Shown here: piece after piece, positions 8,638-39,847 of the stretch
Layout: each line of letters begins with the position of its first letter
Position numbering within the stretch: position 1 is the first letter of the stretch
Assembly (NCBI GenBank): GCA_963743305.1
Contig: CAVUPH010000032.1
Location: forward strand, 64,001 to 128,000
Direction of reading: 5' to 3'
DNA: 64,000 nt
DNA from: an uncultured delta proteobacterium
GTDB lineage: Bacteria > Desulfobacterota > RBG-13-43-22
The notes under the pieces: generated by a model
The model's input: the letters and a program-made list of their open reading frames with translations, nothing else
Database searches by the model: none
Told to the model about the DNA's origin: nothing
Position numbers and translations under genes: made by a program

Positions 8638-8654
8638 AGGCTAAACCCACCGGC

Positions 8655-10005: not shown

Positions 10006-10021
10006 GTCGTCGTTCCTCCCG

Positions 10022-12052: not shown

Positions 12053-12496
12053 TCATTTTTGCTGCTGACAAAATCCCTCCTGGCGACTTCTTACCAGATA
12101 AGAGCCAACGATCGCCTCAGCCTCAATTTCCACCAGATGGGCCGGACGGGCCAAGGCCGCAACCTCGGCCATGGTGATTACCGGTTTGATCTCCTTAAAG
12201 AATTCCGAATAGGCCTGCATATATTCAGCGGCCCGCTTGATGTCCGTCACATAAAGGCGCACCCTATAGACTTCCGAGAGCTGGGCCCCCGCCTTGATTA
12301 AAGCCATTTCAATTTTTTGGAAGATGATTTTGGTTTGCCGGTAAGCATCCCCCTCCGCCTCGACCACTCCCTCCGGATTGGTGGTGGTCGTACCGCCTAC
12401 AAAAACGAAGTTCCCGACCTTGACGGCCCGGCTGTAACCCGCCTTTTCTTCCAGAGGCGCGCCAGAAGAAAAGTTCTCTCTCTTCAGCAAATCCAT
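12053..12496 (-). CDS. RidA/YjgF/UK114 family protein, copy 2
   Basis: Near-identical paralog of 4551-4967 (both begin MDLLKRENFSSGAPLEEK). Confidence 0.9.
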   Translation of the reverse strand: MDLLKRENFSSGAPLEEKAGYSRAVKVGNFVFVGGTTTTNPEGVVEAEGDAYRQTKIIFQKIEMALIKAGAQLSEVYRVRLYVTDIKRAAEYMQAYSEFFKEIKPVITMAEVAALARPAHLVEIEAEAIVGSYLVRSRQEGFCQQQK

Positions 12497-16831: not shown

Positions 16832-16867
16832 GGCTATTCCAGTCCCCAATTATCCGTTTGATCCGGC

Positions 16868-18322
16868 TCAAGCCGTAAGACCATAGCGGTAGCGAAAGTC
16901 ATCGGTCAGGACACAGCGCCGCACCAGGGTGAAGACCCGGGGCCGGGTGTGCCCTTCGCCGTTGGTGGCGATGTGAAAGGAGACGAACCCCTCCCCGGCG
17001 ACGCCGACGCTGGCCAGTCCGCAGGAGCCGTTTTTGACGAAGGCCGCGCACTTGGCGCGTGCGGCCATTTTTCGAATGGTCTCCAGGTTGTTGGAGTGGA
17101 TGGCCATGGTGTGGCCGTTGCCCTGTTCCGCGGCGATGGCCCGGTCGATGGCCTCCCCCGCGTCCCGGCAGCGAACCAGGGGGATGACCGGCATGATCTG
17201 CTCGGTCCAGACCAGGGGGTGATCGGGCCCCGTTTCCAGGATCACGATCTTGGCCTCCGGACCCACCGTCAGGCCGATGGCCTGGAGGATGAAGGAAGGT
17301 GGCTTGCCGATGTACTCCATGTTGATCACCCCCGGCCGGCCGGGCTCCCGGATTTCTTTGAAGATACGCGGGAGCAGTTCCTGCCCCTGCGGTACGGTGA
17401 TTTCATAGGCCCCGTACCGCTTCAACAGTTCCTTGAAGCGGTCGGCCACGGCGTCCACCACAAAAAGCTCCTTCTCGCTGGCGCAGGCCATGCAGTTCGA
17501 GAAGGAGGCCCCTTCGATCACACAGCGGGCGGCCCGGTCCAGATCGGCTGTTTCGTCGACCACCACCGGCGGGTTGCCGGGGCCGCCGGCGATCAGCCGC
17601 TTACCGGTCTGGGCGGCAAAAGCCACCACCCCGTGCCCGCCGGTGACGGCGATCAGCCGGATCAGGGGATGGGTCATGAGCTGCTGGGCCGAAGGCACCG
17701 AGGGTTCCTCCAGGCAACAGATGCAGTTGGCCGGCCCCCCGGCCTCCTGGATGGCCCGATTTAGGTCCCGCACCACCCGGGCCGCCACGTTCCTGGTCTT
17801 GGGGTGGGGGTTGTTGACCACCGTGTTTCCCCCGGCCAGCATCATGATGGCGTTGAACAGGATGGTGGGAGCACCGTTGGTCACCGGGTTCACCGAGGCG
17901 ATGACTCCCACCGGGATCCTTTCGATGATGGTTACACCCTTGTCTCCGGCGAAGACCTCCGGGATCAGGTCCTCCATCCCCAGGACCTCACAGGCGGAAA
18001 GATTTTTTTTGATATTGTCTTCCGCAGAACCTAAGCCGGTCTCCAAATATTCCATTTGCCCGTAGGTTTCGGCCCCGGTCCGCCCGACCCGGCGTATAAC
18101 CTGCAGGATTTCCTCCCGCTTCCGCAGCGGCAAGGCCATCAATTCTTTTTGCGCCCGGGCCGCCGCTTGAATACAGCTTTCAATGTCCGGAAAGACCCCG
18201 TCTCTTGCCGCCAAGGGGAACGATTCCGGAGCAGATTCTTCGGATACCTCGAACCCCTCGCTTTCCAGGCGACGAATGACCCGGGAAACGATCTGTTCAA
18301 GCCGCTCTTTAGCTAAAGCCAT
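16868..18322 (-). CDS. BMC-associated aldehyde dehydrogenase (EutE/PduP-like), paralog 2, with encapsulation peptide
   Basis: LAKERLEQIVSRVIRRLES N-terminus; GPGNPPVVVDETADL, ACASEKE, EQIMPVIP. Confidence 0.9.
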   Translation of the reverse strand: MALAKERLEQIVSRVIRRLESEGFEVSEESAPESFPLAARDGVFPDIESCIQAAARAQKELMALPLRKREEILQVIRRVGRTGAETYGQMEYLETGLGSAEDNIKKNLSACEVLGMEDLIPEVFAGDKGVTIIERIPVGVIASVNPVTNGAPTILFNAIMMLAGGNTVVNNPHPKTRNVAARVVRDLNRAIQEAGGPANCICCLEEPSVPSAQQLMTHPLIRLIAVTGGHGVVAFAAQTGKRLIAGGPGNPPVVVDETADLDRAARCVIEGASFSNCMACASEKELFVVDAVADRFKELLKRYGAYEITVPQGQELLPRIFKEIREPGRPGVINMEYIGKPPSFILQAIGLTVGPEAKIVILETGPDHPLVWTEQIMPVIPLVRCRDAGEAIDRAIAAEQGNGHTMAIHSNNLETIRKMAARAKCAAFVKNGSCGLASVGVAGEGFVSFHIATNGEGHTRPRVFTLVRRCVLTDDFRYRYGLTA

Positions 18323-18427: not shown

Positions 18428-19426
18428 CTAGTTTTTACCTAAACCGGGCTTACTTCTCTTCTTTTTATCCTCCCCCCGTGAGAAACCTTCCCCGGCAGAT
18501 AGCAGGGTATAATATTTCGCCTCCAGTGGGTTGCCGGTTATGGGGGAATCAGTATCCAGTGAATAAAAAACCGGCCGCTTTCTTATTCCATCCTCAATCT
18601 GGCTCAGACGTTTCAAGGTAGCCGTTTTGTCCACGAAGGCAATCTCGTGGATTAAAGCCCCCAACAGGGTCAGGATATGGGAAAAAGGATCTACAAAAGA
18701 CAATCCCTCCACATCCACGATGAGGTATTGGTCGGAAAGGGGAATAATCGGCGATTTGGGGGTATCGCTGATCCCAACGACAAAGGCACGACACTTTTTG
18801 GCGAATTCGATCAACTCGATGGCCTGATTGGCATAGCGGGGGAAAGCGAAGACCACTAGAAGCAGGGAAGAACCATGGAGGGCAATATGGTCGAAGTTCT
18901 CCCAGGAAAGCTGGGTATCCAGACGCACTCCCGGTCGGATCTTTTTCAGGAGAAAGCCAAAATAGGAAGCCAGAACGGAGGAAGCCCGGTAGCCGGCTAC
19001 GAGAACGCGTTCACTCCGGAAAATCTTGCGGGCCAGATTTTTAATTTCCTGTTCCGAAATGGAATGAATCATATGTTCCAGATTCCGCAGGGTGTTTTGA
19101 TGATAGGCCTTCATGGGAGTCAGATTGTCGGTCCGTTTGGTGGACTTCAACATACGCTCCACACTGGTCAATTCAATATGGAGCAGCCCCTTAACGTAGA
19201 CTTCAAATTCCTCATACCCGGAAAATCCGAGATCCAGAACAAAGCGAGTGACGGTAGGTTCGCTCACCCGGCATTCCCTAGCGATTTCTTTGGCTTTGAT
19301 CAAAAAAAGCTTTTTATAATCGTTGATGATGAAATCCGCGATCCGTTTCTTCTTAGGCGACAGTCCGGGATAAATATTGATGATGCGATCGAAGAGTTCT
19401 TTTTTTGCAGAATTGGTTTTCATCAA
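18428..19426 (-). CDS. MurR/RpiR-family transcriptional regulator
   Basis: HTH LSPKKKRIADFI..VSEPTVTRFVLDLGFSGY followed by SIS domain (AFPRYA, ISDTPKSPI). Confidence 0.9.
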   Translation of the reverse strand: MMKTNSAKKELFDRIINIYPGLSPKKKRIADFIINDYKKLFLIKAKEIARECRVSEPTVTRFVLDLGFSGYEEFEVYVKGLLHIELTSVERMLKSTKRTDNLTPMKAYHQNTLRNLEHMIHSISEQEIKNLARKIFRSERVLVAGYRASSVLASYFGFLLKKIRPGVRLDTQLSWENFDHIALHGSSLLLVVFAFPRYANQAIELIEFAKKCRAFVVGISDTPKSPIIPLSDQYLIVDVEGLSFVDPFSHILTLLGALIHEIAFVDKTATLKRLSQIEDGIRKRPVFYSLDTDSPITGNPLEAKYYTLLSAGEGFSRGEDKKKRSKPGLGKN

Positions 19427-19443: not shown

Positions 19444-20061
19444 TTAGTGGTCCCGACCCACCAAGGTGGCCAGAGCTTCCTCGGCGGCTGCCTTCGCGGC
19501 CTGAATGTTGGAGAGGGTTCCGGATAGATAGACCCGTCCGCTGGCTCCGAAGACGCTGGCATGAACCAGTTTGATATCCGCCGCCTTCTCCGCCTCATTG
19601 GCCGCGAATCCGGCATAGCCGGCCGGCACGACTTCAAGGATATACAGGGCGTCATCGGCCAAAATCATGTTGGCGTCCCGAAACCGGTTGACGATGGGGG
19701 TCATGAAAGGGTCGATCCGATCGATGGTTTCGGCCGCCAGTATCTTGGGCTTCAACCGGTCGGTCTCCTTCATTCCCAGATAATTCAAAACCACCTCCCC
19801 GGCTTCCCGGACATCGGCCGGAGAATCTCCGTGGACTTCCAGCATGCCATAGGTCCGTTCCACCACCATGGCCCCCGGTCGAACCTTGGCCTTTTTAAGC
19901 ACCACATCTGTCAGGGAATTGATCTCGATCCCCGGGGCAATTTCCAGAAAAAGACCCGATTGACCGGCGACCGGGTAGTAGCCTCGCGCCGTGCTGCTGA
20001 TGTAACCGACGAATTGCTTCTGCAGTTGATCAATAAAGGCAAAGGCTCGCAGTTCAATCAT
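19444..20061 (-). CDS. BMC-T shell protein, circularly permuted double-stacking type (CcmP/CsoS1D-like)
   Basis: ELRAFAFIDQLQKQF..TARGYYP..EIAPGIEI...VVERTYGMLEVH...LEVVPAGYAGFAANEAEKAA..GASGRVYLSG. Confidence 0.9.
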   Translation of the reverse strand: MIELRAFAFIDQLQKQFVGYISSTARGYYPVAGQSGLFLEIAPGIEINSLTDVVLKKAKVRPGAMVVERTYGMLEVHGDSPADVREAGEVVLNYLGMKETDRLKPKILAAETIDRIDPFMTPIVNRFRDANMILADDALYILEVVPAGYAGFAANEAEKAADIKLVHASVFGASGRVYLSGTLSNIQAAKAAAEEALATLVGRDH

Positions 20062-20071: not shown

Positions 20072-21277
20072 CTAGATGCTCTTTAACCATTCCCGCTTAT
20101 TCGGGCAGATGGCCGTGTTGATGGTGCAAGTGGCGTTTCCCTGGCAGGTACAGACGTGGTCGCCCCCCCGACTGAAGCGGCTGTAACAGAAATCGCTGAT
20201 CGGCTGCGCTACCCGGCAGTCCATGATCAAATCGGCGATCAGGCGGCCGATGGCCGGGGCCAGGCCAAAACCATGGCCGCTGAACCCCGCACAAAAAACA
20301 AATCCGGGGACTTCGCCGGTAAAACCGAGGATGGGGATACCATCCGACACTTGATCGATCAGCCCGGACCACACGCGAATGACCTGGACGTTTTTCAGGA
20401 TCGGGAAATAATCCAGGACCTGGCGGGAAATGGCCGGGCCGATGAAGTTGAACAGGGGCTTCCCGTCGCGGTAGATAAAATTCTCCGTTCCCACAAATCC
20501 CCCCCAGAAAAACGGTCCGTGAACGGTCTGGCGCCCGTAAAACAGCCCCCGGGCATGACCGATCATCTGCGGGAACAGCGGCGGGTAGGGTTCGGTAATC
20601 AAGGCCTCGGAAAACACCGGTTTCATGGGATAATCCAACCCCACCAGATTGGCGATCTTCCGACCCCCGATCCCGGCGGCATTGACGACCAGGTCCGTGT
20701 CGAAGACCTGTTTATCCGTTATAATTCGGGCGACCTTTCCCTTTTTCAACTTGAGGTCCACCACTTGCTCTTGGGTAAAGAATCGCGCCCCCAATCGCTT
20801 GGCTTTCAGAAAAAATCCGTAGGTCACCCGGAAGGGGTTGGCATGCCCGTCCGTCGGGCAATAACTGGCGCCAATCACTTTTTCCCCCACGTGGGGATTG
20901 ATGTCCAGGACTTGTTGTCGATCGAGCATCTCCAGCTCCAGGCCGGTCGTTCGTTGATTCTCCACTGACTTCCGCATCGTAGCCAGATCTTCCTCGGTGG
21001 TGCAGAGGCGCAGGTTTCCCTGGCGGACATATTCCACATCCATTTCCAGTTCTTCGTGAAGCTGGCCGTAGAGGCGGATGCTTTCCAGGGCCAGGGGCAT
21101 CTCTTTGAGATTACGGGCCGACTGCCGGACTCCGCCGCCATTGCTGCCCGAGGCCTCGCCCCCGATATCTCCCTTTTCGATGACCACGGGTTTGAGTCCC
21201 TCTTTGGCCAGATAGTAGGCCACGGCACATCCCATGACCCCTCCTCCCACAATCACTACATCGGCCGTATTCGCCAT
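20072..21277 (-). CDS. FAD-dependent amine dehydrogenase catalytic subunit (sarcosine oxidase beta / proline dehydrogenase beta / DAO family)
   Basis: VVIVGGGVMG, EASGSNGGGVR, DGHANP, WSGL, GFSGHGFGLAPAIG; ATG 21277 after AGGAG. Confidence 0.88.
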   Translation of the reverse strand: MANTADVVIVGGGVMGCAVAYYLAKEGLKPVVIEKGDIGGEASGSNGGGVRQSARNLKEMPLALESIRLYGQLHEELEMDVEYVRQGNLRLCTTEEDLATMRKSVENQRTTGLELEMLDRQQVLDINPHVGEKVIGASYCPTDGHANPFRVTYGFFLKAKRLGARFFTQEQVVDLKLKKGKVARIITDKQVFDTDLVVNAAGIGGRKIANLVGLDYPMKPVFSEALITEPYPPLFPQMIGHARGLFYGRQTVHGPFFWGGFVGTENFIYRDGKPLFNFIGPAISRQVLDYFPILKNVQVIRVWSGLIDQVSDGIPILGFTGEVPGFVFCAGFSGHGFGLAPAIGRLIADLIMDCRVAQPISDFCYSRFSRGGDHVCTCQGNATCTINTAICPNKREWLKSI

Positions 21278-21377
21278 AGTCTCTCCTGCCCTTGACACTC
21301 TCAACCCTTACTCATCCCGATCCACCCAGATCGGTCCGTGGCTTCCAAGATCCCTCTCCGATCCCTTTTCCGGTTTC

Positions 21378-22037
21378 TCAGCCGGTGGCAAAAACCGATA
21401 AAGGCAAGGGCCGGACCGGGGCCCGGGCGGTCATCGGCTCCAGTTCCGCCGGCGACCGGCCCAGTTCCTGGGCCAGGATCTGGGTGACCAACCGCTCACA
21501 GGTCTGTCCCTGGCACAACCCCATGCCGGCCCGGGTAATGCGTTTAATCCCGCTGACCGTTTGCATCCCGTTGCGGATGGCCTCCTTGATCTGGCCTCGA
21601 GTGATCTCCTCGCAGCGGCAAATCACCAAGTCGTCGTCAGCCGGGGCGGTCCCCGGGGCCTCCGGTTTCAGGCCCGATGCCCGGCCCTTCAGGGCTTTAA
21701 ACCGCTCGACGACCCGATCGACGATCCGTTCCAATTCTTCATCCTCGGAAACCGGGGGTGGAGCCGCAACGCCCACCCCAGTTCCAGCCTCGGCCGTCTC
21801 GGTTGCCGGACCGGTTTCACCCCGAGACGTTTCTCGGCCGGGTTTCGATTCCGACGTCGTGGGAAAGGCGTCCGGCGGCGTCTCCGCTTCGGGACGGTAA
21901 ACCACCTCGATCCCCTGCTCCTGGATTAGATCCTGGGCCGCGGCCGATATCCGGGCCCCCTCCCTTACGGCTAAGGTTTTATGCCCCTCCCGGACCAGGT
22001 CTTCGATATCTCGAGAAAAAATAAATTCAGGTCCCAT
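21378..22037 (-). CDS. BFD-like [2Fe-2S] dehydrogenase subunit with added N-terminal domain and encapsulation peptide
   Basis: C-terminal ICRCEEIT...RAGMGLCQGQTC...TARAPVRP; internal helix EDEELERIVDRVVERFKAL between Pro/Ala/Glu-rich linkers. Confidence 0.85.
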   Translation of the reverse strand: MGPEFIFSRDIEDLVREGHKTLAVREGARISAAAQDLIQEQGIEVVYRPEAETPPDAFPTTSESKPGRETSRGETGPATETAEAGTGVGVAAPPPVSEDEELERIVDRVVERFKALKGRASGLKPEAPGTAPADDDLVICRCEEITRGQIKEAIRNGMQTVSGIKRITRAGMGLCQGQTCERLVTQILAQELGRSPAELEPMTARAPVRPLPLSVFATG

Positions 22038-22047
22038 GCGGGCGCCC

Positions 22048-22666
22048 TTATTCTTTCCGACCGGTTAGACCGTTTAAGGTTTCCACCACTTTAGCGGCGG
22101 CCGCCAAAATTTCCGATTCGGTCCCGGCCAGATAGAGCCGACCGGCGGCCCCGAAAAAACTCAGGTCCACCAGGCGGACGTTACAGTGTTTTTCCGCTTC
22201 GTTGGCGGCAATCGAGGAATAAGCCGCCGGGGTAACTTCCAGCAGATAGACGTCGTTGCCCCCTAAGATGAGCATGCCCCGACTGTTCCGGTTGATGATG
22301 ACGGCCTGATAGGGATCGATCTTGTTGACAATACTGGTCGCCAGAATCTTCGGGGTCAGCCGGTCTTCTGGCTTCAGACCGATTTCATTAAGGATCATCT
22401 GCCCGGCATGGAGGATCTCTTCTTGATCGAAGGAATGGATTTCCAGCATGCCGTATCTTCTTTCCACGATCATCTCTCCCGGGCGGGCACTGGTCACCTT
22501 GAGGGCTATATCGGTCAACCGGTTGATTTCAATACCCGGCACGACCTCCACAAAGAGGGAAGACATGCCCTCCACCGGAAGAAATCCCCGGCAGCGACAG
22601 GCGAAATAGAGAGGCGAATTGAGGCTGAAGCCGATCAAGATGGCAGTAAGCACGTAGTTCCGGCAT
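22048..22666 (-). CDS. BMC-T shell protein (CcmP/CsoS1D-like), paralog 2; +1 frameshift near 22609
   Basis: Corrected N-terminus MPELRAYCHLDRLQPQFASYFACRCRGFLP aligns without gaps to 19444-20061; IVERRYGMLEIH, AANEAEK, GAAGRLYLAG; AAGGAG RBS. Confidence 0.87.
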
Positions 22667-22678
22667 GGGTGGATCTCC

Positions 22679-23300
22679 TTAGCTGTTAATCCTGTTTTCT
22701 TGAATGAAGTCTTTGGTGATACGACGGAAGGTCTCGGACAACTCCTGGGTCTGGCAAAAGACTACCCCCAAGCCCTCCAATTTTTTTAACAAGCGTTCCA
22801 TTTCCGTTTTGAGGGCCTCGTTGGCCAGGACCTCGCAGACCATAAATCCGTCCCTGGCGGCGAGAACCCGCTTGCCTTGCAGCAGGGCCGAAAAAACCAG
22901 GTCGGGAGTCCGGATCATCGGCCATCAGATGAGCCACTTTGGAGGCCACCATCAGGCATAAAGTGGGTAGCACGAGCACATCGGCGCGGGCCAATACCTT
23001 CTCCAGCCCCTCGGGTTTGACCGTATCCAGGATGCACGGCGCCCCTCCCTGCTCACGGACATCGGCCCCACAGACCCGAGAACGCACTGCGGGAACCGTA
23101 TACACCCCGGACCAGCCGGCCTGGGCTTCCAAGAGCGGCAATTGTTTCAGCGCCTCTTCCAGCCGCCGAATCCCGGCTTGGAAAACAATCAGCGCCCGGG
23201 GTCCCGGAGGGGCCGAAGAACGGACCCGCGGCCTCCCTTGTTCGCCCGATTCCAGCAGGACTTCCGCCACCAGTTTCCGAATCTCTTCTTTCGAGATCAT
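22679..23300 (-). CDS. BMC-associated flavoprotein-like protein with N-terminal encapsulation peptide; +1 frameshift near 22904
   Basis: MISKEEIRKLVAEVLLES; ADVLVLPTL..ASKVAHLMADD...ALLQGKRVLAARDG...LKKLEGLGV as in BMC-locus flavoproteins. Confidence 0.7.
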
Positions 23301-23322
23301 GGTGTGAAAAACGTCTCCCTCA

Positions 23323-24171
23323 TCACGAGGCCTGTGCCCAGGCAACGGATTGGCCTTTCTCTCCTAGACAGGAAAGGGCGATCCCGTAGGGCGTTACGAC
23401 CTGGGGGACTTGAGGTTTAAAGACCTCCAGACCGAGATTCTGGGCGACCAATTCCGTTAAGCCACCCAACTCGCAGGTTCCCCCCACCAAACAAACCCTG
23501 GGGATGCCCTCGAACCCTTCCAAGGCTTTTCGAATAATGGCCGAAACCTTTTCAATCACCGGACGAACAACGGGGAGGATCTCCGGATGACGGGAAGGGT
23601 CGATTTTGATCCTTTCGGCTTCCTCAAAGCTGATCCGCAGGTGACCGGACAGGACCAGGGAAAGATGAACCCCTCCGGTGGCTTCATCACTGGTCCGGAT
23701 AATCCGGCCGTCTCGAATCAGGGCTATCCCCGTGGTTCCCCCGCCGATATCCACCAGGGCCCCATCTTGGAGGTTGAGAAAACGGTTGGCCGCCGTGGGT
23801 TCGTCCAGGACCCGGACAACTTCCAACCCGGCTCCCTGCAGGATATAGCGGGTGGTATGCACATTGCCGGATTCCGTCTGCGGGGGAAAGGAGGTAGCCC
23901 CCTGATCGATGGGCAGCGAAGAGCGGCTTCGGATTTCTTCCATTATCGCCTTCAACAGGGTGAGGGTCCCGAAGTAATCAATAATCAGACCGCTGCCTAT
24001 TCCTTCGGAGCGCCGCATAGCCGCCGCCCTGGGCCGTCCCTGTTCATCCACTACAATCACCTTACTCTTGTAGGTTCCCAGGTCCACCCCGGCAAACAAT
24101 TCCCGGGCCCCGGAGAAATCCCAAGTTTCCGGCCGATTCATGATCCGACGAATGGTCTTGAGGGCTGTCAT
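23323..24171 (-). CDS. eutJ: Ethanolamine utilization protein EutJ-like (actin/Hsp70-fold ATPase)
   Basis: GVDLGT, LDEPTAAN, VDIGGGTTG, DEATGGVH, LVGGTC, VTPYGIA. Confidence 0.88.
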   Translation of the reverse strand: MTALKTIRRIMNRPETWDFSGARELFAGVDLGTYKSKVIVVDEQGRPRAAAMRRSEGIGSGLIIDYFGTLTLLKAIMEEIRSRSSLPIDQGATSFPPQTESGNVHTTRYILQGAGLEVVRVLDEPTAANRFLNLQDGALVDIGGGTTGIALIRDGRIIRTSDEATGGVHLSLVLSGHLRISFEEAERIKIDPSRHPEILPVVRPVIEKVSAIIRKALEGFEGIPRVCLVGGTCELGGLTELVAQNLGLEVFKPQVPQVVTPYGIALSCLGEKGQSVAWAQAS

Positions 24172-24723
24172 CAGATTAAATTGGGATAAAGCTCCCGACT
24201 CAGGGAAGGGATCACCACATGGCTTTGAATCAACCCTTCATCGGTCAGGGCCGCTAAACCGGCGTCTACCGCCGCCTGGACGGAACCGACATCTCCGGTT
24301 AAGGAAACATAGGATTTTCCGGCCAGACCCGTGGCACAGCGGATCTCGATAATCTCCACCGCCGCCGCCTTAACTGCCGCATCGGCCGCCAGGATGCAGG
24401 AGGACGCCGAATAGGTTTCAATGATCCCCAGGGCGCCAATGTTCAGGATCTGGGTGGCGCAACTGAGGGCCGGAAAAATACTCGGGTGGACATTGGGGAT
24501 CGTAAAGGAGTCGACCAGAAACTCCCCGGCGATTTCCCGGCCCACGTCCACCGCAGTTCTGCACCGAACCGACGTCGCCGGCGATCAGGGCCAAATAGCG
24601 CCCGGGGCAGACCGGCCGGGCCATGATCAGCTCGACGCTGGCCGCTTTGATCATCTCATCGGCGCAGTGGACCCCTTTGGCCACGCTGTTCAGTTCGATC
24701 AGCCCAATCGCTTTGTATGCCAT
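24171..24723 (-). CDS. pduT: PduT-like BMC-T shell protein (Fe-S-binding Cys); +1 frameshift near 24558
   Basis: AIGLIELNSVAKG..ADEMIKAA..ARPVCPGRY..GDVGSV then ALGIIETYS..AADAAVKAA..GLAGKS..GDVGSVQAAV. Confidence 0.85.
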
Positions 24724-24727
24724 GACC

Positions 24728-26077
24728 CTACCTCTTCTCCCGTTGGATAACGACCTGCCCGTCCACCGAAACCACCCGACCGGCCAGACTGGCATGGATC
24801 CGGGCACCCAGGGCCTTCTCCGGTATCTCTCCCAGCAGATCCCCCTGGTTGACCCGATCACCGGCTTGGACGACGGGCCGGGCCGGCGCCCCTAAATGCT
24901 GTTTCAAGGGGATGGCCACCCGATCCGCCCGGATTTCCCGGGAATCGAAACGGGGATGACGGTCGTATTTCTTGATTTGAAGACGTTCCATCAGCCGCTG
25001 CGTCGGGATCCTTCTCCCCTCGCGAAAGGCCGAGGGCCGGTAGTCCTCCCGAACGGTAGGCCGCTTCACCCCTTGGGCCAGCAGTTCCCGTTTGATCTGG
25101 GCGTTGACCTCCCGCGGGGAGATCATCATGGGGCAGGCGTATTTTTCGCAGACCCCGCATTCCGAACAGATCAGGGCGTCTTTTTGGATCTCTTGAGCCG
25201 CCGGGGAGGTGGACCCCAGTTGCCGCATGATTTTATGGGGGTTCAGGGAATGTCCCAGCAAATAGCGAGGGCACATGTCGGTGCAGCGGGAGCATTGGCA
25301 GCAGGCCAAACGGGTAATATTCCGTAGACGGGCCGGATCCTTGATCTTATCCACGACCACCGGATGATCCGGAGCCAGGACTAAAAGGCCGCTGGTGGTC
25401 TTGCCGACCGGCGTCGCCAGATCCGAGACCACCTGGCCCATCATGGGCCCTCCCAGAACGACCCGAAATTCCCCGAGCACGGGCCCCCCCCGCCAACCCG
25501 ATCACCTCTCCGACCGACAGGCCGATGGGGACCTTCAGGATCAGAGGTTCCGCCACCTCTCCCCCGACGGTTAGATACCTTTCGAGTAACCGGGCGGCCT
25601 TCCTCCACGGCTTGGTCGATATTCAGGAGGGTTTCCACGTTGCTGACCACGGCCCCCACCTGCAGGGGCAGACCCCCCTTCCGGGACCACCCGCCCCATG
25701 ACCTCGTACACCAGGACCTGCTCATCCCCGGCCGGGTAGAAATCCGCCAGTTCAAAAAGATCGATCTTTTTGTAAGGCCCCCGCCCGACCTTATCCCGCA
25801 GGACGGCCAGGGCCTTTTGATGTTTTCCCTTTAGACACAGGGTTCCTTGAGGGGCCCCGGTGCATTCCATGACCCGCAGGAGACCCCGGAGGATCCGATC
25901 GGCTTCCTGCTCCAGCAGATAGGGATCACTCATCAGCAGCGGTTCGCAGGAAGCCCCGTTGGCCAGGACCCGCTCCACCCTGGCCTTCAATTTGACGTGG
26001 GTCGGGAAGCCGGCCCCCCCGGCCCCGACCACCCCGGCTTCCTGCACCCGGCTGATGATCTCCTGGCTCGTCATCAC
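24728..26077 (-). CDS. pduS: PduS/RnfC-like flavin Fe-S oxidoreductase; three +1 frameshifts near 25675, 25580 and 25485
   Basis: AGVVGAGGAGFPTHVK, NGASCEPLL, YPAGDEQ, GGPMMG, CCQCSRCTDMCP, CSECGVCEKYACP, QHLGAP, IHAS. Confidence 0.85.
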
Positions 26078-26087
26078 GCTGCTTTTC

Positions 26088-26363
26088 CTAAGTTCCGCTC
26101 AGATCCAAGCTGTCCACAATCCCCACCACCACCGCGTCCACGGGGATTAATTTCTCCTGGTCGAAGGCCTGCATGGCCGGACTGCCCTGGGTGATGATGA
26201 CCAGTTCTCCCACCCCCGCTCCGATTTCATCGGCCGCCACCAGGACGTCGCCGGCCGGGGTCAATTTCTTGCCCAACGGCTGGACAAAGAGCAGCCGCAA
26301 CGCGTGGATCTTTTCATTTTTTTTGGTCGACCAGACGTTCCCCATCACCTTGGCAATTTTCAT
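26088..26363 (-). CDS. eutN: BMC-P pentamer (EutN/CcmL family)
   Basis: MKIAKVMGNVWSTKK...VAADEIGAGVGELV...GSPA...PVDAVVVGIVD. Confidence 0.93.
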   Translation of the reverse strand: MKIAKVMGNVWSTKKNEKIHALRLLFVQPLGKKLTPAGDVLVAADEIGAGVGELVIITQGSPAMQAFDQEKLIPVDAVVVGIVDSLDLSGT

Positions 26364-26449
26364 GGTATCTTTCCCGAGACCCGCTTAGGCCGGTCTAGCC
26401 GTTAGATTCTCTCTTAGGTGTCCGTGATGCCGAAGCCAGGCCCCACCGA

Positions 26450-26755
26450 TCATCCCAGTCCTTCCCGGGCCTGAATGGCCTCCAGGCTGGTTTTGACCGC
26501 CGCAATATCCCCGAAGATCCCGATCATGGTCAAGTGCTGGGGACAGCTTCCTTTGAGGTCAAAGACATGAACGGCAGCGGCCTTTTCGGCAATGTCCGCG
26601 GCCGCCACCATATCCACCAACCGCCCTTGAACCAATCCCACGGCGCTGAAGTTGATGATCTCCAGCGTCTTCTTGCCGGTGGAACCCATCCGGGTCATTA
26701 AGATATCGATGACCCCCGGTCCGGGGTGGGTAATGAACTGAATATTCAGCGCCAT
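26450..26755 (-). CDS. GrpU-like BMC-H shell protein
   Basis: AVGLVQG..DMVAAADIAEKAA and the GSCPQ motif (GxCPQ of GrpU). Confidence 0.85.
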   Translation of the reverse strand: MALNIQFITHPGPGVIDILMTRMGSTGKKTLEIINFSAVGLVQGRLVDMVAAADIAEKAAAVHVFDLKGSCPQHLTMIGIFGDIAAVKTSLEAIQAREGLG

Positions 26756-26890
26756 CCTCTTTTCCTTATGGGTCCAGCCGGGCTGGTCCCCTTACCAAAA
26801 CGAATCCGGCCTCTCCGCCCGCGGGGATCGATTTTTTGTTCTGGCCGGGGGACTGGTCCCGACCCCGCGGTCAACCGGACCCGGAACGAT

Positions 26891-27172
26891 TTATTTTTCG
26901 GCCTTGGGGAGAATGAACTCGATATCCCCGTGGGGTCTGGGGATAACGTGGACCGACAGGAGCTCGCCCACCCTTTTGGCCGCCGCCCCGCCGGCATCGG
27001 TAGCGGCTTTGACCGCGCCCACATCCCCCCGGACAAAAATCGTCACCAAACCGCCGCCGGCATGCTCTTTTCCCACCATCTTGACGTTGGCCGCTTTCAC
27101 CATGGCATCGGCCGCCTCAATGGCACCGACCAATCCCCGGGTTTCCACCATACCTAATGCTTGTTCACCCAT
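26891..27172 (-). CDS. Canonical BMC-H hexamer (PduA/EutM-like)
   Basis: [26 protein letters not shown]...[14 protein letters not shown]...VHVIPRPH. Confidence 0.96.
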
Positions 27173-27197
27173 GTTTTTTTCCTCCTACAGTTTGTTT

Positions 27198-27701
27198 TTA
27201 TCGTTTCAATCGAATCGCCCTGGCCTTCATGGACCAGGCACGAGGTACTTCAATGGTTACCACGGCGGTTTGATCCATCCGCTCCGTCTTACGGACCGCG
27301 GTGGCCGGAGCCTCTCCTAAAACGGCCCCGGACCGATCCAAAACCACCACCAGCTCCCCCTTTTCCGGGAGCGGCAGAAACTCATGGGGCAGGGTCACCG
27401 CCGCCTTATCATCCGGCAGGCTTTCATCGACGATGAAAATGGCCTGACCCGGACAAATGGGCACGCAGGACTGACAGCCAATGCATTTATCTTCATCCAG
27501 GTGCGGGAGGTTGGTAATATCCCTCCCCACCGAGATGGCTTCGACCCGGCAACTGGCCTCGCAGGGGTTGCAGGGAATATGTTCGGTGCACTCGATCACG
27601 GCCACCGGCCCCCGCCGCCGCCGGGCTTCGGTAGGGATACCGGGACTGTCCCTTAATTCTTCTTCCGATAGAAAGCCTGTTTGCGATAATCCTGGGGCCA
27701 T
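27198..27701 (-). CDS. 4Fe-4S dicluster ferredoxin subunit of the dehydrogenase complex
   Basis: ECTEHIPCNPCEASC and CIGCQSCVPICPGQAIF. Confidence 0.87.
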   Translation of the reverse strand: MAPGLSQTGFLSEEELRDSPGIPTEARRRRGPVAVIECTEHIPCNPCEASCRVEAISVGRDITNLPHLDEDKCIGCQSCVPICPGQAIFIVDESLPDDKAAVTLPHEFLPLPEKGELVVVLDRSGAVLGEAPATAVRKTERMDQTAVVTIEVPRAWSMKARAIRLKR

Positions 27702-27706
27702 CCGTT

Positions 27707-28795
27707 TTACCTTTCCATCAGGGCGTAAAGTTGTTCCTTGTTCTGCCGGCGAGCTTCGCCATAGGGTCCGCTGCGCAAACCGGACATGCTTTCCAACTGC
27801 TCCGCCCGCTGGTGTTCAAAGGCGTCGGTATCCAAGTATCCCAGGCTGTGGGCCGCGGCCAATCCGGCAATGCGCCCCTCAATAATCGCCGTGCTGGCTT
27901 CCTCAATTCCGGAGACATCCCCCGCCACGTAAATCCCCGGAAGGGAAGTTTGCTGGTCGAGATCATGGATCGGCACATTCCCTCCCAAAGCGGAAAGCGA
28001 GGCCATTTTACAGCCGGCCATCCGCAAAAGCTGGGTCATCGGGTTGAGGCCCACGGCAATGCAGATGGTATCCACTTCCAGTTCCTTTTCCGTTCCGGCA
28101 ACGGGTTGCCACTTGGAATCGACCTCAACGATCGTAGCCCCGATCACTCGGTCACTCCCCCGGGCCTCCTTGATGGTATGGGACAGGAAAAAAGGGACCC
28201 CGTAGCGGGCCACCTTGGCCGCGTGGACCCCATACCCGGAAATCCGAGGGGCGGCGTCGATGACTGCGGCTATCTGGCATCCGGCTTGAAGCAGTTGAAA
28301 ACTGACCACGACCCCCACATTGCCGGAACCCACCATGAGAATGTTGTTCCCCGGCCGAACGCCATGAAGGTTGGCCATGGTCTGGGCCGCGCCGGCTCCG
28401 ATTACCCCGGGAAGGGTCCACCCAGGGAAAGGGATCATATTTTCCGAAGCGCCGGTGGCCACCAGAACCCGCTCCGCCTTGACCTCTTCAATCCGGTCCT
28501 GAATCATGACATTCATGGTCCGGTTCTCATAAATCCCCAGGACCACTGCCTTCAGAAGGACTTCCACGCCAAGTTGGCGGGCCTCGTCCAACAGGCTTTG
28601 GCCGATATGAAATCCCCGTTCCTGGGCGCGGTGTTCTTTGGAACCGAAAAACTTATGGATCTGTTTAAAGAGCTGGCCGCCCGGCCGTTCGTTTTCATCA
28701 AAAACCACCACTTCGACCCCGCAGCGGGCCGCCTCGATCGCGGCGGAAAGGCCGGCCGGTCCCGCCCCAATACAAACCAGTTCGCATCGTCTCAT
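27707..28795 (-). CDS. NAD(P)/FAD-dependent oxidoreductase subunit (sarcosine oxidase alpha N-terminal / HcnB-like)
   Basis: IGAGPAGLSAA, PGGQL, ATGASE..FPGWTLPGV, GSGNVG, YVAGD; ~362 aa with no folate-binding domain. Confidence 0.87.
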   Translation of the reverse strand: MRRCELVCIGAGPAGLSAAIEAARCGVEVVVFDENERPGGQLFKQIHKFFGSKEHRAQERGFHIGQSLLDEARQLGVEVLLKAVVLGIYENRTMNVMIQDRIEEVKAERVLVATGASENMIPFPGWTLPGVIGAGAAQTMANLHGVRPGNNILMVGSGNVGVVVSFQLLQAGCQIAAVIDAAPRISGYGVHAAKVARYGVPFFLSHTIKEARGSDRVIGATIVEVDSKWQPVAGTEKELEVDTICIAVGLNPMTQLLRMAGCKMASLSALGGNVPIHDLDQQTSLPGIYVAGDVSGIEEASTAIIEGRIAGLAAAHSLGYLDTDAFEHQRAEQLESMSGLRSGPYGEARRQNKEQLYALMER

Positions 28796-29115
28796 TTTTT
28801 CCCCGCCGGCGGCTCCGGTCCATGGCCGTGCTGCGTTTGGATTGACATACCCGCTTGAAGCGGTTCCACACAGGTCCGCACGTTGGGCCTTCCATCCACG
28901 ACCATGATGCAGTCGGTGCATCGGCCAATGGCACAAAACATCCCCCGGGGTTCTTTTCGTTTCGCCGTGTAACGGTGGATGATAACCCCGTTGCTCCGGA
29001 GGGCCATGGCGATGGGTTCCCCCGCGAAACCCTCCATCGGTTGTTGATCAAAGGTAAACCGGACCTTTTCACCCTTTTCAAAAGTCCCCAGAATGGGATG
29101 GTCCTCGATGCGCAT
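28792..29115 (-). CDS. [2Fe-2S] subunit (Fer2_4 / HcnA-like)
   Basis: GEPIAMAL...PRGMFCAIGRCTDCIMVVDGRPNVRTC. Confidence 0.88.
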   Translation of the reverse strand: MRIEDHPILGTFEKGEKVRFTFDQQPMEGFAGEPIAMALRSNGVIIHRYTAKRKEPRGMFCAIGRCTDCIMVVDGRPNVRTCVEPLQAGMSIQTQHGHGPEPPAGKK

Positions 29116-29259: not shown

Positions 29260-30583
29260 CTAACAAAATCCGAACATTTCCGTAAAAGTGAAGTTGGTCC
29301 CCACCAGGGGTATCCCGGTCATGGCGCAGGCCTCCAGAGTCAGGGAGCGGATGTCTTCCCGTTCCAGATTGGCCAGCTTGGTCTTCCCGGCGGCCTTGGC
29401 CAGGAGAACGGTCTCGTAAGTCATGGCCTGAATATAGTTGGCCACCCGTTGCGCCGCCGCCTCGATGTCCAGGTTCTTTCGCAATTCCGGGTCCTGGGTT
29501 CCGATCCCCCAGGGGCATTTTCCCTCGTGGCAGCGGAGGCAGACCACGCAGCCCATGGCGATCATGGCCCCGGTTCCGATGGCCACGGCATCGGCGCCGA
29601 TGGCCAAGGCCTTGGCTACATCGGCCCCGTCTTTGATCCCGCCGGAGACGATCAGACTCACCTCATCTTTGACGCCCATCTCCTCCAGGGCCCGGACGGC
29701 CTGGACCAGGGCCGGCAGGGTGGGGATCCCCAGGTGTTTGGAAGCCATGACCGGGGCGGCCCCGGTGCCGCCTTCGGAACCGTCGATGACGACGCCGTCG
29801 GCGCCGGTCTTGACGGCGATCTTGACGTCTTCCTTAACCCGGCCGGCGGCCATCTTGATGAAGATGGGGATCTGATAGTCGGTCACGTCCCGCAGTTCCT
29901 GGATCTTCAAGACCATATCGTCGGCCCCGAAAATATCCCCATGGCGGGGATGACTGTGCAGGTCAATACCTTCCGGCAACTGCCGGAATTGCGCAATTTC
30001 CTTGGTGATTTTACTGCCCATCAGGTGTCCGGAAAGACCGGGTTTGGCGCCGATGCCGGTGATCAGCTCCAGGGCATCAGCGGCCTCGATGTTGGTCAGG
30101 GAAAAGCCCATCCGGCTGGGGGTGATCTGCACCACCTGTTTATAGGAATTCGCTCGTTCTTCGGGAAGCAACCCGCCTTCTCCATTGTTGATCGAGGTCC
30201 CCACGATCTGGGTGGACTTGGCCAGAGCGATTTTGGCCTCTTTGCTCAAGGCCCCATAAGACATGCCGGAAATCATGATCGGCGTTTCAATGACCAGGGG
30301 TTTTTTGGCGAAGCGAGCCCCCAGGACCGTCCGGGTCTGGCAGTCCTCCCGGTAGGTGTCCACCGACAAACGGGAGAGCTGGGCCGCCAGGATGAGCAGG
30401 TCGTCGAAATTGGGATAGCGGGCTGGTGGAACCACATCCCCGTATCCGGTGCTTACCCGTATAGGCCTTGTATTTGACCTCGGCCACCGTTTCCGCATTC
30501 CAGACCCCGCGCTGGACATCCTTGGCCTTGGGCACCTTCCCTTTTTCCTCCTGGTATTGCTTATATTCTTTTTCCTCGGACAT
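29260..30583 (-). CDS. FMN-binding glutamate synthase domain protein (GltB2 / MgsC-like); +1 frameshift near 30421
   Basis: SGMSYGALS, NGEGG, GAKPG, HSHPRHGD, IDGSEGGTGA, SGGIKDGADVAKALAIGAD, CVVCLRCHEGKCPWGIGTQDP. Confidence 0.88.
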
Positions 30584-30585: not shown

Positions 30586-31290
30586 CTACCTCCCCGGCTG
30601 AACCTGAAGATGTTGGGGTTTGAAGAGGTAATATTCGTGGCGGCCCAGGACCTTCGGAACCACACTCCGGAAGTGGTCCACCCCCTGCTCCAGACCATAC
30701 TGCTTGAAAAGGCCTTCCAGCGCCTTTTTTTCTTCATCGGAAATGGGGATGATCGAGGCGTTTCCGCCCAGTTTGTCTTCCACCGCGGGGTCCAGGGTGT
30801 GAATGATGCCGTTGTACATGGACTCCCCAATAACCGGCCCCATTTCCCCGAGGACGATGATCCGTCCCCCCAGGGTCATGTATCCGGTCCACCGGCCCAC
30901 ACTGCCGCAAATGATGAGGTTGCCGCCTTTCATCCCCAGGCCGGCCCGGGTGCCGCTGTTTCCTTTGACCAGGATGGTACCCCCGAGCATGGAAGGGCCG
31001 CAGTTGCTGCCGGTGTTCATCTCGACGATGATCTCCCCGGCCTTCATGTTGTCACCGGTGTACCAGCCGGTATTCCCCTTGACGTGCAGGGTCGGACCTT
31101 CCAGGAACCCACCGGTGTAGAAACCGGTGCTGCCCTCGACGGTGACGGTGCCTTCCCCTTTTAAGGCTGTAGCGAAATTGTGGACCGAGTGGGAATTCTT
31201 GATAACGATTTCCCGGTCCTGCTTAATGGTTTCCCTCAGTTTTCGGTTTACATCCCAACTGGTCATCCCGGCAATGTCTAAATTGACCAT
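30586..31290 (-). CDS. GXGXG beta-helix glutamate synthase domain protein (GltB3 / MgsB-like)
   Basis: Repeating G..G...G..M.GG units (GNTGWYTGDNMKAG, GNSGTRAGLGMKGG). Confidence 0.85.
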   Translation of the reverse strand: MVNLDIAGMTSWDVNRKLRETIKQDREIVIKNSHSVHNFATALKGEGTVTVEGSTGFYTGGFLEGPTLHVKGNTGWYTGDNMKAGEIIVEMNTGSNCGPSMLGGTILVKGNSGTRAGLGMKGGNLIICGSVGRWTGYMTLGGRIIVLGEMGPVIGESMYNGIIHTLDPAVEDKLGGNASIIPISDEEKKALEGLFKQYGLEQGVDHFRSVVPKVLGRHEYYLFKPQHLQVQPGR

Positions 31291-32177
31291 ACCTTTACTC
31301 CTCCTGGCTCCATCTCGGTGGCATACACATCCGAGACGATCGGGGTTAAGCAGATTTGCTCCGACCCAAATAGTACGGTCCCGTCTTCCCTTTCAAAGTA
31401 GAGCACCGGTTTAAAACCCAACCAATCCCGAAAGGCCCCTATCTGTTTATCCGTGCTGGCCAGGATGGTGAACACCCCGTCAAAGGCCTCCAGGGCCTGG
31501 TGCATGGCCCCTTCCAGGTCCTGTCCTTTTTCTTTCATCTGGTACGCGAGATACTGGGCCGCCAGCTCGGAGTCATTATTGGTCTTGAAGCGGACCCCCT
31601 TATTTTCCAGACTCCGCCGCATCTTGAAATAGTTGGTAAACTGGCCGTTATGGACTATAGCCAATTCCGGATAGAGGTAGGAGATAAAAGGATGGGCGAA
31701 GTTGATGTTTTCCACCGTCTCGGTAGCCAGGCGCACATGCCCGATACCGTGGGTGCAGGTTCCTACGCGGATCTCATGGGTGCGCTGCAGGTCTTCGGCC
31801 GAACCCTGGTCTTTGTAGACCTTCAAGTGTTGGCCCAGGGAGTGCACACATAATTGGGGATGACTGTCTATGTCCCAATGGAGCCGGCCGATCTGGGAAG
31901 GATCCATGTCGATGGATCCTTCATAAAAGCTGAAGATCCCCTCGCCATGGTAGCTGCGGGCCTTACGGACTTTGCCGAACATGGCGATGATCTCCTCCAG
32001 CTCCCGCTCGTAACAGGGGTCGGTCAGGGAGGCTCGGATCTGGATGTCTTCCCGTTGCTCATACAGCGCCACCCCCGTCGCGTCCCGGCCGCGGTGCTCC
32101 AATTCCTTGAGCATATTGACCAGGTCCTGGGCCAGGGTGGGAGAATTTCTCCCGATTATTCCTGCTATCCCGCACAT
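31278..32177 (-). CDS. Class II glutamine amidotransferase (GltB1 / MgsA-like)
   Basis: MCGIAG with N-terminal nucleophile Cys, HRGRDATG, GHVRLATE, AHPF, VHNG, NDSE. Confidence 0.88.
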   Translation of the reverse strand: MCGIAGIIGRNSPTLAQDLVNMLKELEHRGRDATGVALYEQREDIQIRASLTDPCYERELEEIIAMFGKVRKARSYHGEGIFSFYEGSIDMDPSQIGRLHWDIDSHPQLCVHSLGQHLKVYKDQGSAEDLQRTHEIRVGTCTHGIGHVRLATETVENINFAHPFISYLYPELAIVHNGQFTNYFKMRRSLENKGVRFKTNNDSELAAQYLAYQMKEKGQDLEGAMHQALEAFDGVFTILASTDKQIGAFRDWLGFKPVLYFEREDGTVLFGSEQICLTPIVSDVYATEMEPGGVKVWSI

Positions 32178-39773: not shown

Positions 39774-39847
39774 CCGATCCTCCTCGAGAGACATCTGCCG
39801 GTTAAGGGGTACAGCGCAGTGAACGTTATTGAATTGAGGAGGACTTT

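Follow-up and report, generated by a model that had tools for sequence, protein, structure and literature searches.

The N-methylglutamate pathway of rhizobia and aerobic methylotrophs brings together, in one gene cluster, a ligase (GmaS or GlnT), a three-piece synthase (MgsABC), and a dehydrogenase (MgdABCD) in which a DAO-type subunit is paired with an alpha-like partner. The dehydrogenase is of the same kind as sarcosine oxidase (SoxBDAG), with a folate-binding GCV_T half in the alpha subunit and with the additional subunits SoxD and SoxG. Folate-free members of the family include L-proline dehydrogenase (PDH1, 1Y56), D-hydroxyproline dehydrogenase, OdhABC, and HcnABC, heterooligomers made up of a beta subunit of the DAO type, an alpha subunit of the Pyr_redox type, and a small [2Fe-2S] subunit; the archaeal alpha-beta-gamma-delta form has a ferredoxin-like gamma subunit. 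Metabolosomes of the PDU, EUT, and GRM types are bacterial microcompartments (BMCs) with a BMC-H/BMC-P/BMC-T shell, in which an aldehyde generated by a B12-dependent or glycyl-radical lyase is passed to a tagged PduP/EutE-type aldehyde dehydrogenase, accompanied by PduS-, PduT-, and EutJ-like accessory proteins. Here, we describe a locus with components of both kinds of system, found in a 64,000-nucleotide stretch of DNA (the window; positions 64,001 to 128,000 of contig CAVUPH010000032.1, assembly GCA_963743305.1) from an uncultured delta proteobacterium. In this locus, a block of shell genes separates the genes of a predicted iron-sulfur (Fe-S) flavoprotein dehydrogenase devoid of folate-binding domains, which is encoded next to genes resembling gmaS and mgsABC. 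The source metagenome-assembled genome (MAG; 4.9 Mb, 43 contigs) is about 90% complete, and the gene array is one minus-strand run that starts near 33.6 kb and ends near 12 kb of the window. Our literature searches turned up neither a microcompartment tied to the N-methylglutamate pathway nor an anaerobic Fe-S form of this pathway.

All coordinates below are window positions, and all genes of the array are on the minus strand. Fifty-two open reading frames (ORFs) of the window were scanned with Pfam; NCBIfam was also applied and gave no equivalog above cut-off for any pathway protein (the DAO subunit matches TIGR01373 soxB at 5.1e-43 and 147 bits, the cut-off being 529 bits). A sequence-only reading of the window had assigned five ORFs to one amine dehydrogenase, and the positions and sizes that it gave were confirmed. 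Upstream of the shell genes lie a [2Fe-2S] subunit of 107 amino acids (aa) (28792..29115; Fer2_4, 4.3e-28), an FAD/NAD(H)-type subunit (27707..28798 from the ATG; Pyr_redox_2, 2.1e-37), and a two-cluster 4Fe-4S subunit of 167 aa (27198..27701; 4Fe-4S dicluster families, best E value 2.3e-8), hereafter Fer4. The ATG of the Pyr_redox gene overlaps the 3' end of the Fer2_4 gene; counted from this codon, the product has 363 aa, where about 362 had been given. Downstream of most of the shell genes lie a BFD [2Fe-2S]/SO_alpha_A3 subunit, hereafter BFD_A3 (219 aa; 21378..22037; Fer2_BFD, 9.5e-15, and SO_alpha_A3, 5.5e-12), and the catalytic DAO-type, beta-like subunit (401 aa; 20072..21277; DAO, 6.1e-75). 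The ORF of the latter covers 20072-21304, and its relatives begin at residue 10, which gives the 401-aa form. The trio and the pair, estimated to be about 5 kb apart, are separated by 5.16 kb, from the end of the Fer4 gene at 27198 to the start of the BFD_A3 gene at 22037.

As the canonical reference, we used an aerobic cluster on plasmid pRLN2 of Rhizobium leguminosarum (L083), in which the beta, delta, alpha (985 aa), and gamma genes of a sarcosine oxidase-family enzyme are followed by mgsA, mgsB, mgsC, glnT, purU, and dimethylamine monooxygenase genes. In blastp comparisons, the Fer2_4, Pyr_redox, and BFD_A3 subunits correspond to residues 10-100, 169-459, and 518-578 of the Rhizobium alpha subunit, respectively, whereas residues 600-985, the folate half, have no counterpart among the window proteins; the DAO subunit is 27.5% identical to Rhizobium SoxB (beta). 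Thus, the five genes represent the beta subunit, the N-terminal half of the alpha subunit in three pieces, and a ferredoxin-type protein; compared with SoxBDAG and MgdABCD, the GCV_T half, SoxD, and SoxG are absent. Among solved structures, the best relative of the DAO subunit is the beta subunit of Pyrococcus horikoshii L-proline dehydrogenase (1y56_B, 1.2e-52), with the SoxB chains at about 2e-32, and those of the Pyr_redox subunit are SoxA 2gag_A (1.8e-18) and 1vrq_A.

The Cys motifs and the R-x-W motif of the window proteins are shared with the group of L-proline dehydrogenase, OdhABC, and HcnABC. The Cys spacing of the Fer2_4 protein, C-X4-C-X2-C-X12-C, follows the pattern of the gamma or small subunits of the family (C-X4-C-X2-C-X11-12-C) described by Watanabe et al. 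2015 (PMC4575208), who also place a second Cys site in the alpha subunit and the R-x-W motif in the beta subunit. BFD_A3 holds the alpha-type C-X-C...C-X4-C site, with a longer spacer (32 residues) and on a separate protein, and R310 and W312 of the DAO motif are invariant in 11 of 11 aligned shell-type sequences (defined below). The same paper lists opine dehydrogenase, D-hydroxyproline dehydrogenase, HCN synthase, and archaeal L-proline dehydrogenase as folate-free relatives, locates FAD in both the alpha and the beta subunits and FMN between them, and reports that the FMN of opine dehydrogenase was recovered only upon co-expression of alpha, beta, and gamma. What sets the window enzyme apart from these relatives is the gmaS/mgsABC and microcompartment context, the separate, tethered BFD_A3 protein, and the two-cluster ferredoxin subunit. 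Because Pyr_redox-Fer4 fusions occur among the relatives and the three alpha pieces form a single chain in the canonical enzyme, the five genes most likely encode one iron-sulfur flavoenzyme complex, the assembly of which we infer from homology and gene fusions.

To place the locus among its relatives, one genome per species was scanned for homologs of the DAO subunit; of the 166 that were found, the best 80 (L002-L081) were analyzed, and the window proteins were located on them by tblastn. Because only the best 80 of 166 were retained, this sample is biased toward close relatives. In 57 of the 80 loci, BMC-T genes adjoin the DAO gene, in the gene order of the window (hereafter shell type). 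The DAO proteins of these loci are 63-89% identical to that of the window, the value of 63% belonging to the frameshifted L013, and nearly all of the record titles name Desulfobacterales, Desulfobacteraceae, Desulfatiglandales, Desulfarculia, Syntrophobacteraceae, Thermodesulfobacteriota, or "delta proteobacterium"; the exceptions are L059 (Alphaproteobacteria) and L028 ("proteobacterium"). Another 22 loci contain no shell gene (hereafter shell-free); their DAO proteins are 42-53% identical to that of the window, and their titles name Desulfovibrionales, Marispirochaeta, Spirochaetaceae, Bacillota, Desulfosporosinus, Syntrophomonas, Lawsonibacter, Pelosinus, and, once, Desulfobacter. L032, a 2.5-kb fragment, is assignable to neither type; its 227-aa BFD protein looks shell type. 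The carriers' titles name groups that we take to be anaerobes. In metagenomes, the shell-type DAO protein is represented by more than 120 clusters at 75% identity or higher, under the names "sarcosine oxidase subunit beta" or "oxidoreductase."

The two types differ consistently in the arrangement of the dehydrogenase genes. In all 22 shell-free loci, the gap between the Fer4 and BFD genes is 0-267 bp, with nothing in between, whereas in all 41 shell-type loci that show both genes, the gap is 4,957-7,181 bp and contains at least six shell-gene matches; given this recurrence, the split arrangement is not due to chance. The usual shell-free order is (APC permease), ligase, MgsA, MgsB, MgsC, Fer2_4, Pyr_redox-Fer4 (~530 aa), BFD_A3 (~110 aa), DAO (~374 aa), and RidA, and this contiguous order is also the domain order of the canonical alpha subunit. 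The description of the enzyme as five-subunit therefore holds for the shell type and fails for most of the shell-free relatives, in which Fer4 is fused to the C terminus of Pyr_redox and the genes number four; separate Pyr_redox and Fer4 genes are a trait of the shell type, shared by two shell-free loci, L057 and L058 of Desulfovibrionales. Two shell-type loci are deviant: L031 and L048 (the latter including 400 masked bases) contain BFD_A3, DAO, BMC-T, and RpiR genes, with no shell block in the 10 kb upstream.

In a maximum-likelihood tree of 70 DAO sequences (8 rows with ORFs longer than 430 aa were dropped), the shell-type proteins form one clade (100/100) that is nested among the shell-free forms, with the shell-free Desulfovibrionales pair as its sister (100/100), followed by Spirochaetota (81/96), and with Bacillota further out. 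Rhizobium SoxB served as the outgroup, a search of the MAG for paralogs having returned only the DAO gene itself; because the branch leading to this outgroup is very long, the position of the root is uncertain. The agreement between gene order and alpha domain order, together with the DAO tree, supports a single entry of the shell block into an older, contiguous dehydrogenase cluster, as the sequence-only reading had proposed.

That reading had also noted the absence of any GcvT-like domain or SoxG-like gene, and the searches agree. The only GCV_T (PF01571) match in the whole MAG is a 401-aa ORF on another contig. The SoxG and SoxD profiles matched nothing in the 90%-complete MAG; the SoxG profile does detect SoxG on the Rhizobium plasmid that carries the canonical enzyme, whereas SoxD has no hidden Markov model (HMM) positive control, and the built-in controls for SoxG and SoxD matched in none of 14 genomes. 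Six tblastn queries (Rhizobium alpha residues 600-985, SoxG, SoxD, PurU, an aminomethyltransferase, and the MAG's own GcvT) produced no match at E values of 1e-3 or below in the window or in any of the 80 related loci, whereas all positive controls matched. Five genomes with the shell-free form have at most one GCV_T each; in the one case with a matched contig, L062, it lies about 600 kb away from the locus.

The further proposal that the missing folate domain explains the need for a shell found no support in the form given. The 22 shell-free relatives are equally folate-free, so the lack of this domain alone cannot account for the shell, and they show that the enzyme can do without one. No shell genes were found in the seven shell-free loci in which the neighbors were scanned. 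The shell and the aldehyde dehydrogenases are thus an addition in one lineage.

Signs of encapsulation come from a comparison of protein lengths between the two types. Among the five dehydrogenase subunits, only BFD_A3 and DAO differ in length. The median length of BFD_A3 is 220 aa in 51 shell-type ORFs and 110 aa in 23 others (including L032), the difference being a 110-aa N-terminal extension that the shell-free orthologs lack. This extension consists of a conserved module of about 45 residues, a variable linker, and a conserved amphipathic helix; in the AlphaFold model, residues 1-50 are predicted with confidence (predicted local distance difference test [pLDDT] scores of 88-97), residues 52-96 score below 50 (disordered), and the helix comprises residues 98-119. 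As modeled, the helix resembles an encapsulation peptide. The DAO subunit of the shell type carries, in addition, a 29-residue Cys-rich C-terminal tail, absent from shell-free forms, of which the last 11 residues are invariant. As a side observation, the tail (20072-20160) may be a metal site or a shell-binding motif.

The 45-residue module of BFD_A3 (residues 1-50; 21888-22037) recurs at the C terminus of a flavoprotein-fold protein encoded within the shell block (22679..23345, frameshifted near 22903; hhalign probability 96.9%, E value 1.5e-10), the N terminus of which is a tag-like helix resembling that of BFD_A3. In Pfam, the module gave only subthreshold E3_binding matches (14 of 19 members, best E value 0.0042), making the E3-binding (peripheral subunit-binding) domain a lead rather than an assignment; the module may be a second anchoring element. 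The flavoprotein-fold gene itself has no Pfam match. The model of its L003 ortholog (pLDDT 86.7) matches UbiX, EpiD, and PPC-decarboxylase folds in Foldseek (best E value 1.2e-6; TM scores of 0.43-0.74).

Two PduP/EutE-type, CoA-acylating aldehyde dehydrogenases are encoded further downstream. Aldehyde dehydrogenase 1 (484 aa; 16868..18322; NF011927, 1.4e-150) has 5jfl_A as its best solved relative (8e-94), with the Aldedh domain starting at residue 46; aldehyde dehydrogenase 2 (15404..16849; NF011927, 6.9e-152) is found in a subset of the shell-type loci. Both have about 45 residues in front of the catalytic domain, a tag-like extension that, by its position and pattern, is a putative targeting peptide. 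Conversely, the GmaS-like and MgsABC-like proteins are of equal length in the two types and are therefore probably cytosolic.

The genes directly upstream of the dehydrogenase encode counterparts of the other enzymes of the N-methylglutamate pathway: a GS-like (glutamine synthetase-like) gamma-glutamyl-amine ligase of the GmaS type (446 aa; 32243..33583; Gln-synt_C, 4.4e-102), an MgsA-like class II amidotransferase (299 aa; 31278..32177; GATase_6/7), an MgsB-like GXGXG protein (234 aa; 30586..31290; GXGXG, 3.7e-22), and an MgsC-like FMN synthase subunit with a four-Cys Fe-S motif (419 aa; 29260..30519; Glu_synthase, 2.1e-106). The ligase is 33% identical to Rhizobium GlnT, and the MgsC, MgsA, and MgsB counterparts are 50%, 30%, and 30% identical, respectively (blastp). 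Against solved structures, the ligase matches ordinary GS (1.3e-70) and the glutamate-methylamine ligases 9qur (8.3e-65) and 7cql (6.2e-64) about equally well. It lacks the FDGSS motif, presumably the ammonium site of GS, that is present in the MAG's own GlnA, and resembles Rhizobium GlnT at that site; the MAG has two other GS loci. The linkage of these genes to the dehydrogenase is tight. MgsC adjoins it in 19 of 22 shell-free loci (two of the other three end at contig ends, and the third is L080) and in 24 of the 25 shell-type loci with room, the exception being L017.

The MgsC motif, C-x2-C-x2-C-x4-C at residues 324-335, is conserved in all 26 shell-type and all 19 shell-free copies, whereas Rhizobium MgsC has none of the four Cys and carries a 16-residue insertion in their place. 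In a HMMER alignment, Cys324, Cys330, and Cys335 align with residues 1102, 1108, and 1113 of Azospirillum GltB (1ea0/2vdc), which we take to be [3Fe-4S] ligands. This match implies that the synthase of these loci, unlike the aerobic one, probably takes electrons and so would need an electron donor. A complex prediction for MgsC with the Fer4 subunit, aimed at the electron loop considered below, gave no answer (score of 0.01 against a mark of 0.32) and weighs neither way.

Downstream of the two aldehyde dehydrogenase genes lie genes for an APC permease, a C45/AAT-family protein, and a RidA-family protein (12053..12496; Ribonuc_L-PSP, 3.4e-25). Among the 31 shell-type loci with at least 8 kb of downstream sequence, RidA is present in 28, the DctP component of a tripartite ATP-independent periplasmic (TRAP) transporter in 25, a class I amidotransferase-like gene in 15, and an Amidohydro_3 hydrolase in 8. 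RidA is likewise present in 15 of the 17 shell-free loci with room, 9 of which are headed by an APC permease similar to that at 2591-3949 of the window (not to the permease inside the locus). Overall, compared with the aerobic pathway, the locus lacks the GCV_T half and the delta and gamma subunits and has no purU in its neighborhood; its alpha part is split into three genes, a 4Fe-4S protein and RidA are added, and the Fe-S motif of MgsC, missing in Rhizobium, is kept.

The shell block comprises a BMC-H protein (93 aa; 26891..27172; BMC, 1.4e-28), a probably permuted BMC-H protein of the EutS/GrpU-like kind (101 aa; 26450..26755; partial BMC match to profile positions 1-59 of 75), a BMC-P pentamer protein (91 aa; 26088..26363; EutN_CcmL, 6.7e-29), a PduS-like NADH/FMN/4Fe-4S protein (24728..26077, frameshifted; Complex1_51K, Fer4_17, and RnfC_N), a PduT-like tandem-BMC protein (24171..24861, frameshifted near 24555; two BMC domains in two frames), a EutJ-like actin-fold ATPase (282 aa; 23323..24171; NF011660 EutJ, 9.7e-86), and a CcmP-like tandem BMC-T protein (201 aa; 22048..22653; NF053796, 216 bits, below cut-off). 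Another CcmP-like protein follows the DAO gene (205 aa; 19444..20061; NF053796, 234 bits, below cut-off), and next to it is an RpiR-family regulator (18428..19426; HTH_6 and SIS) whose position is kept in shell-type loci. This inventory matches PDU, EUT, and GRM metabolosomes in the shell proteins, the tagged aldehyde dehydrogenases, and the PduS-, PduT-, and EutJ-like accessories. It differs in that the aldehyde source would be a flavin/Fe-S dehydrogenase instead of a B12-dependent or glycyl-radical lyase and in that no phosphotransacylase or alcohol dehydrogenase is found among the 52 window ORFs by Pfam.

The absence of these two enzymes fits the "incomplete core" label used in the microcompartment catalog of Sutter et al. 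2021 (PMC8217296), according to which the types MIC2-7 are of unknown function and have no obvious aldehyde-generating signature enzyme. Two models in the HMM table of this catalog, DAO and Fer2_BFD, take their names from MIC6. The MIC6 example among its shell proteins, seen as one tree label, is GrpU-like and hexameric, has 99 aa, and comes from an unclassified Desulfobacteraceae MAG. These features fit the window locus, which is probably of the MIC6 type; a link between MIC6 and gmaS/mgsABC or a five-gene dehydrogenase is not given in the accessible text and tables.

The reading toward which we lean, if only slightly, is that an N-alkylglutamate dehydrogenase resides in the shell and hands free aldehyde to the two tagged CoA-acylating aldehyde dehydrogenases. 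The enzyme would be of the sarcosine oxidase/archaeal proline dehydrogenase/opine dehydrogenase kind, without the folate half, delta, and gamma, and would catalyze the last step of the N-methylglutamate pathway in an anaerobic version. The GS-like ligase would act in the cytosol, coupling an amine to glutamate at the expense of ATP, and the split GltB-like synthase (MgsABC-like, with its Fe-S site) would convert the resulting amide to N-alkyl-L-glutamate. The DAO subunit would then oxidize the N-alkyl C-N bond, the side that sarcosine oxidase and L-proline dehydrogenase oxidize; with no folate trap, the imine would hydrolyze to glutamate and free aldehyde, which the tagged dehydrogenases would convert to acyl-CoA. 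Recruitment to the microcompartment would have involved the gain of a tether (folded module, linker, and amphipathic helix) by the BFD subunit and of the Cys-rich tail by DAO; electrons and NADH would exit by way of the PduS-like and flavoprotein-fold proteins and a PduT-like trimer of the shell. The amine may be either methylamine, which would yield formaldehyde, or a larger or acid-bearing amine. Encapsulation is inferred from the shell-type extensions of BFD_A3 and DAO and from the module shared with the tagged flavoprotein-fold protein, the substrate class from the gmaS/mgsABC linkage and from a ligase without FDGSS, and the handling of aldehyde from the presence of two PduP/EutE-type dehydrogenases.

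Several observations weigh against this scheme, and some of them favor another substrate. The DAO subunit is far closer to the beta subunit of L-proline dehydrogenase than to SoxB; a conserved RidA, best known for hydrolyzing alpha-imino acids, would fit oxidation on the amino acid side; and the TRAP and APC transporters point to an amine that bears an acid group or is polar, not to a simple volatile one such as methylamine. In the Pelosinus locus L080 (5444-11615), the four-gene dehydrogenase is flanked by genes for a saccharopine dehydrogenase on one side and an ordinary aldehyde dehydrogenase on the other; an amino acid ATP-binding cassette (ABC) transporter is encoded there too, and gmaS and mgs genes are absent, indicating that substrates vary within the family. 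L080 is also the only one of the seven scanned shell-free loci with a linked aldehyde dehydrogenase; taken with the folate-free state of the shell-free relatives, this means that the aldehyde is tolerable there or that the product is other than assumed. The enzyme could therefore oxidize an imported secondary amine or amino acid (L-proline, hydroxyproline, an opine, a saccharopine-like compound, sarcosine, or glycine to glyoxylate), with the GS- and GltB-like genes recapturing nitrogen or being unrelated. The family as described in PMC4575208 does include opine, D-hydroxyproline, and glycine (HCN synthase) enzymes, Liv-type transporters would suit amino acids as well as the TRAP and APC ones do, and RidA would act on imino acid products. 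We nevertheless regard such a substrate as unlikely, given that the linkage of the dehydrogenase to gmaS-mgsABC-like genes is tight and widespread and mirrors the canonical cluster, that a ligase lacking FDGSS is not an ordinary GS, that the MAG has two other GS loci, and that the oxidation of proline or an opine would yield no obvious substrate for a CoA-acylating aldehyde dehydrogenase.

Another point against the scheme concerns the complex itself: the Fer2_4, Pyr_redox, and Fer4 subunits have no shell-type extension, so the whole complex need not be inside the shell. It is conceivable, though improbable in our estimate, that the genes form two modules, with the upstream trio serving as a cytosolic, GltD-like reductase mainly of the MgsABC-like synthase and only BFD_A3 and DAO enclosed, their electrons crossing the shell via the PduS-like and PduT-like proteins. 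MgsC, with its GltB-aligned Cys plus a fourth, would need an electron donor; the trio, which holds the operon's only redox genes, lies directly behind mgsC; and Pyr_redox and Fer4 are unfused specifically in the shell type (and in L057 and L058). Yet the canonical alpha subunit unites Fer2_4, Pyr_redox, and A3 in a single polypeptide, the Fer4 fusion also occurs in L080, where there is no MgsC, and DAO without Pyr_redox may be incomplete, considering the co-expression requirement for the opine dehydrogenase FMN (PMC4575208). Finally, three accessory genes, those for the PduS-like, PduT-like, and flavoprotein-fold proteins, contain frameshifts in this MAG, as if the compartment were decaying and the dehydrogenase were no longer enclosed. 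Compared with L002, single-base insertions occur in the PduS-like gene (near 25678, 25585, and 25479), the tandem-BMC gene (near 24555), and the flavoprotein-fold gene (near 22903), each of which is one open ORF in L002, L003, and L010. The insertions are in or beside G or C runs, and a GS gene on contig 10 is likewise split in two (L085/L087), so that assembly error in this 43-contig MAG is the probable cause. No such damage affects the five genes of the dehydrogenase, the two for aldehyde dehydrogenases, or the remaining shell genes, and we consider decay very improbable. Selenocysteine read-through of the in-frame stops in the PduS-like gene was ruled out as well because the middle segment, between the stops, is out of frame. 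Beside the encapsulated N-alkylglutamate dehydrogenase, two rivals are retained, the one with another substrate and the one with two modules.

Several other features of the surrounding DNA were recorded. A second small cluster at 383-4967 encodes an amidase, a 205-aa protein without a Pfam match, an APC permease, and RidA. Downstream of the locus, 7464-11762 holds a trio of BNR/Ycf48-like, DUF1329, and DUF1302 genes, of which DUF1329 and DUF1302 are also found behind the locus in L052. On the other strand, at 38070-44596, an Amidohydro_3 hydrolase gene is followed by a Liv-type ABC transporter, and the same pair lies directly behind the RidA gene of the locus in L003; the hydrolase may release the amine from an amide. 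A 616-aa ORF at 51874-53724 joins an HMGL-like domain to a Cache/PDC sensor domain and is either an unusual fusion or a frameshift artifact. In one shell-type locus, a molybdopterin oxidoreductase with an N-terminal Fe4S4 domain (L046:17651-19723), resembling formate dehydrogenase in domain content, is encoded directly behind the aldehyde dehydrogenase.

What we regard as new is, first, that the signature enzyme of this metabolosome would be of a new type and, second, a pathway of the N-methylglutamate type that is rich in Fe-S and free of folate domains; each is a variation on a known kind. A bolder possibility, which we consider rather doubtful, is a closed electron loop and a one-carbon organelle: the electrons that DAO withdraws from N-methylglutamate would return, via the Fe-S subunits, the PduS-like protein, and the PduT-like trimer, to the Fe-S synthase outside. 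If so, amine, 2-oxoglutarate, and ATP would yield glutamate and aldehyde in a redox-neutral overall reaction driven by ATP, which would take the place of a transaminase, none being known for methylamine. With methylamine as the substrate, the organelle would be the first metabolosome to confine formaldehyde (converting it to formyl-CoA) and a candidate route of methylamine oxidation for sulfate reducers in anoxic sediments. If the amine is methylamine, the locus would also bear on which organisms use up methylamines in sediments where sulfate is reduced. For one of the types MIC2-7, the locus offers a concrete candidate for the aldehyde source, namely, a flavin/Fe-S amine dehydrogenase supplied by a glutamate-tagging pathway. 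Loci under Bacillota, Spirochaetota, and Thermodesulfobacteriota titles further show that the pathway of the N-methylglutamate type, familiar from aerobes, has an Fe-S-rich, folate-free form. The shell-free and shell-type forms, furthermore, represent a natural before-and-after pair for the recruitment of an enzyme to a microcompartment, through the gain of a tether, the gain of a tail, and gene fission.

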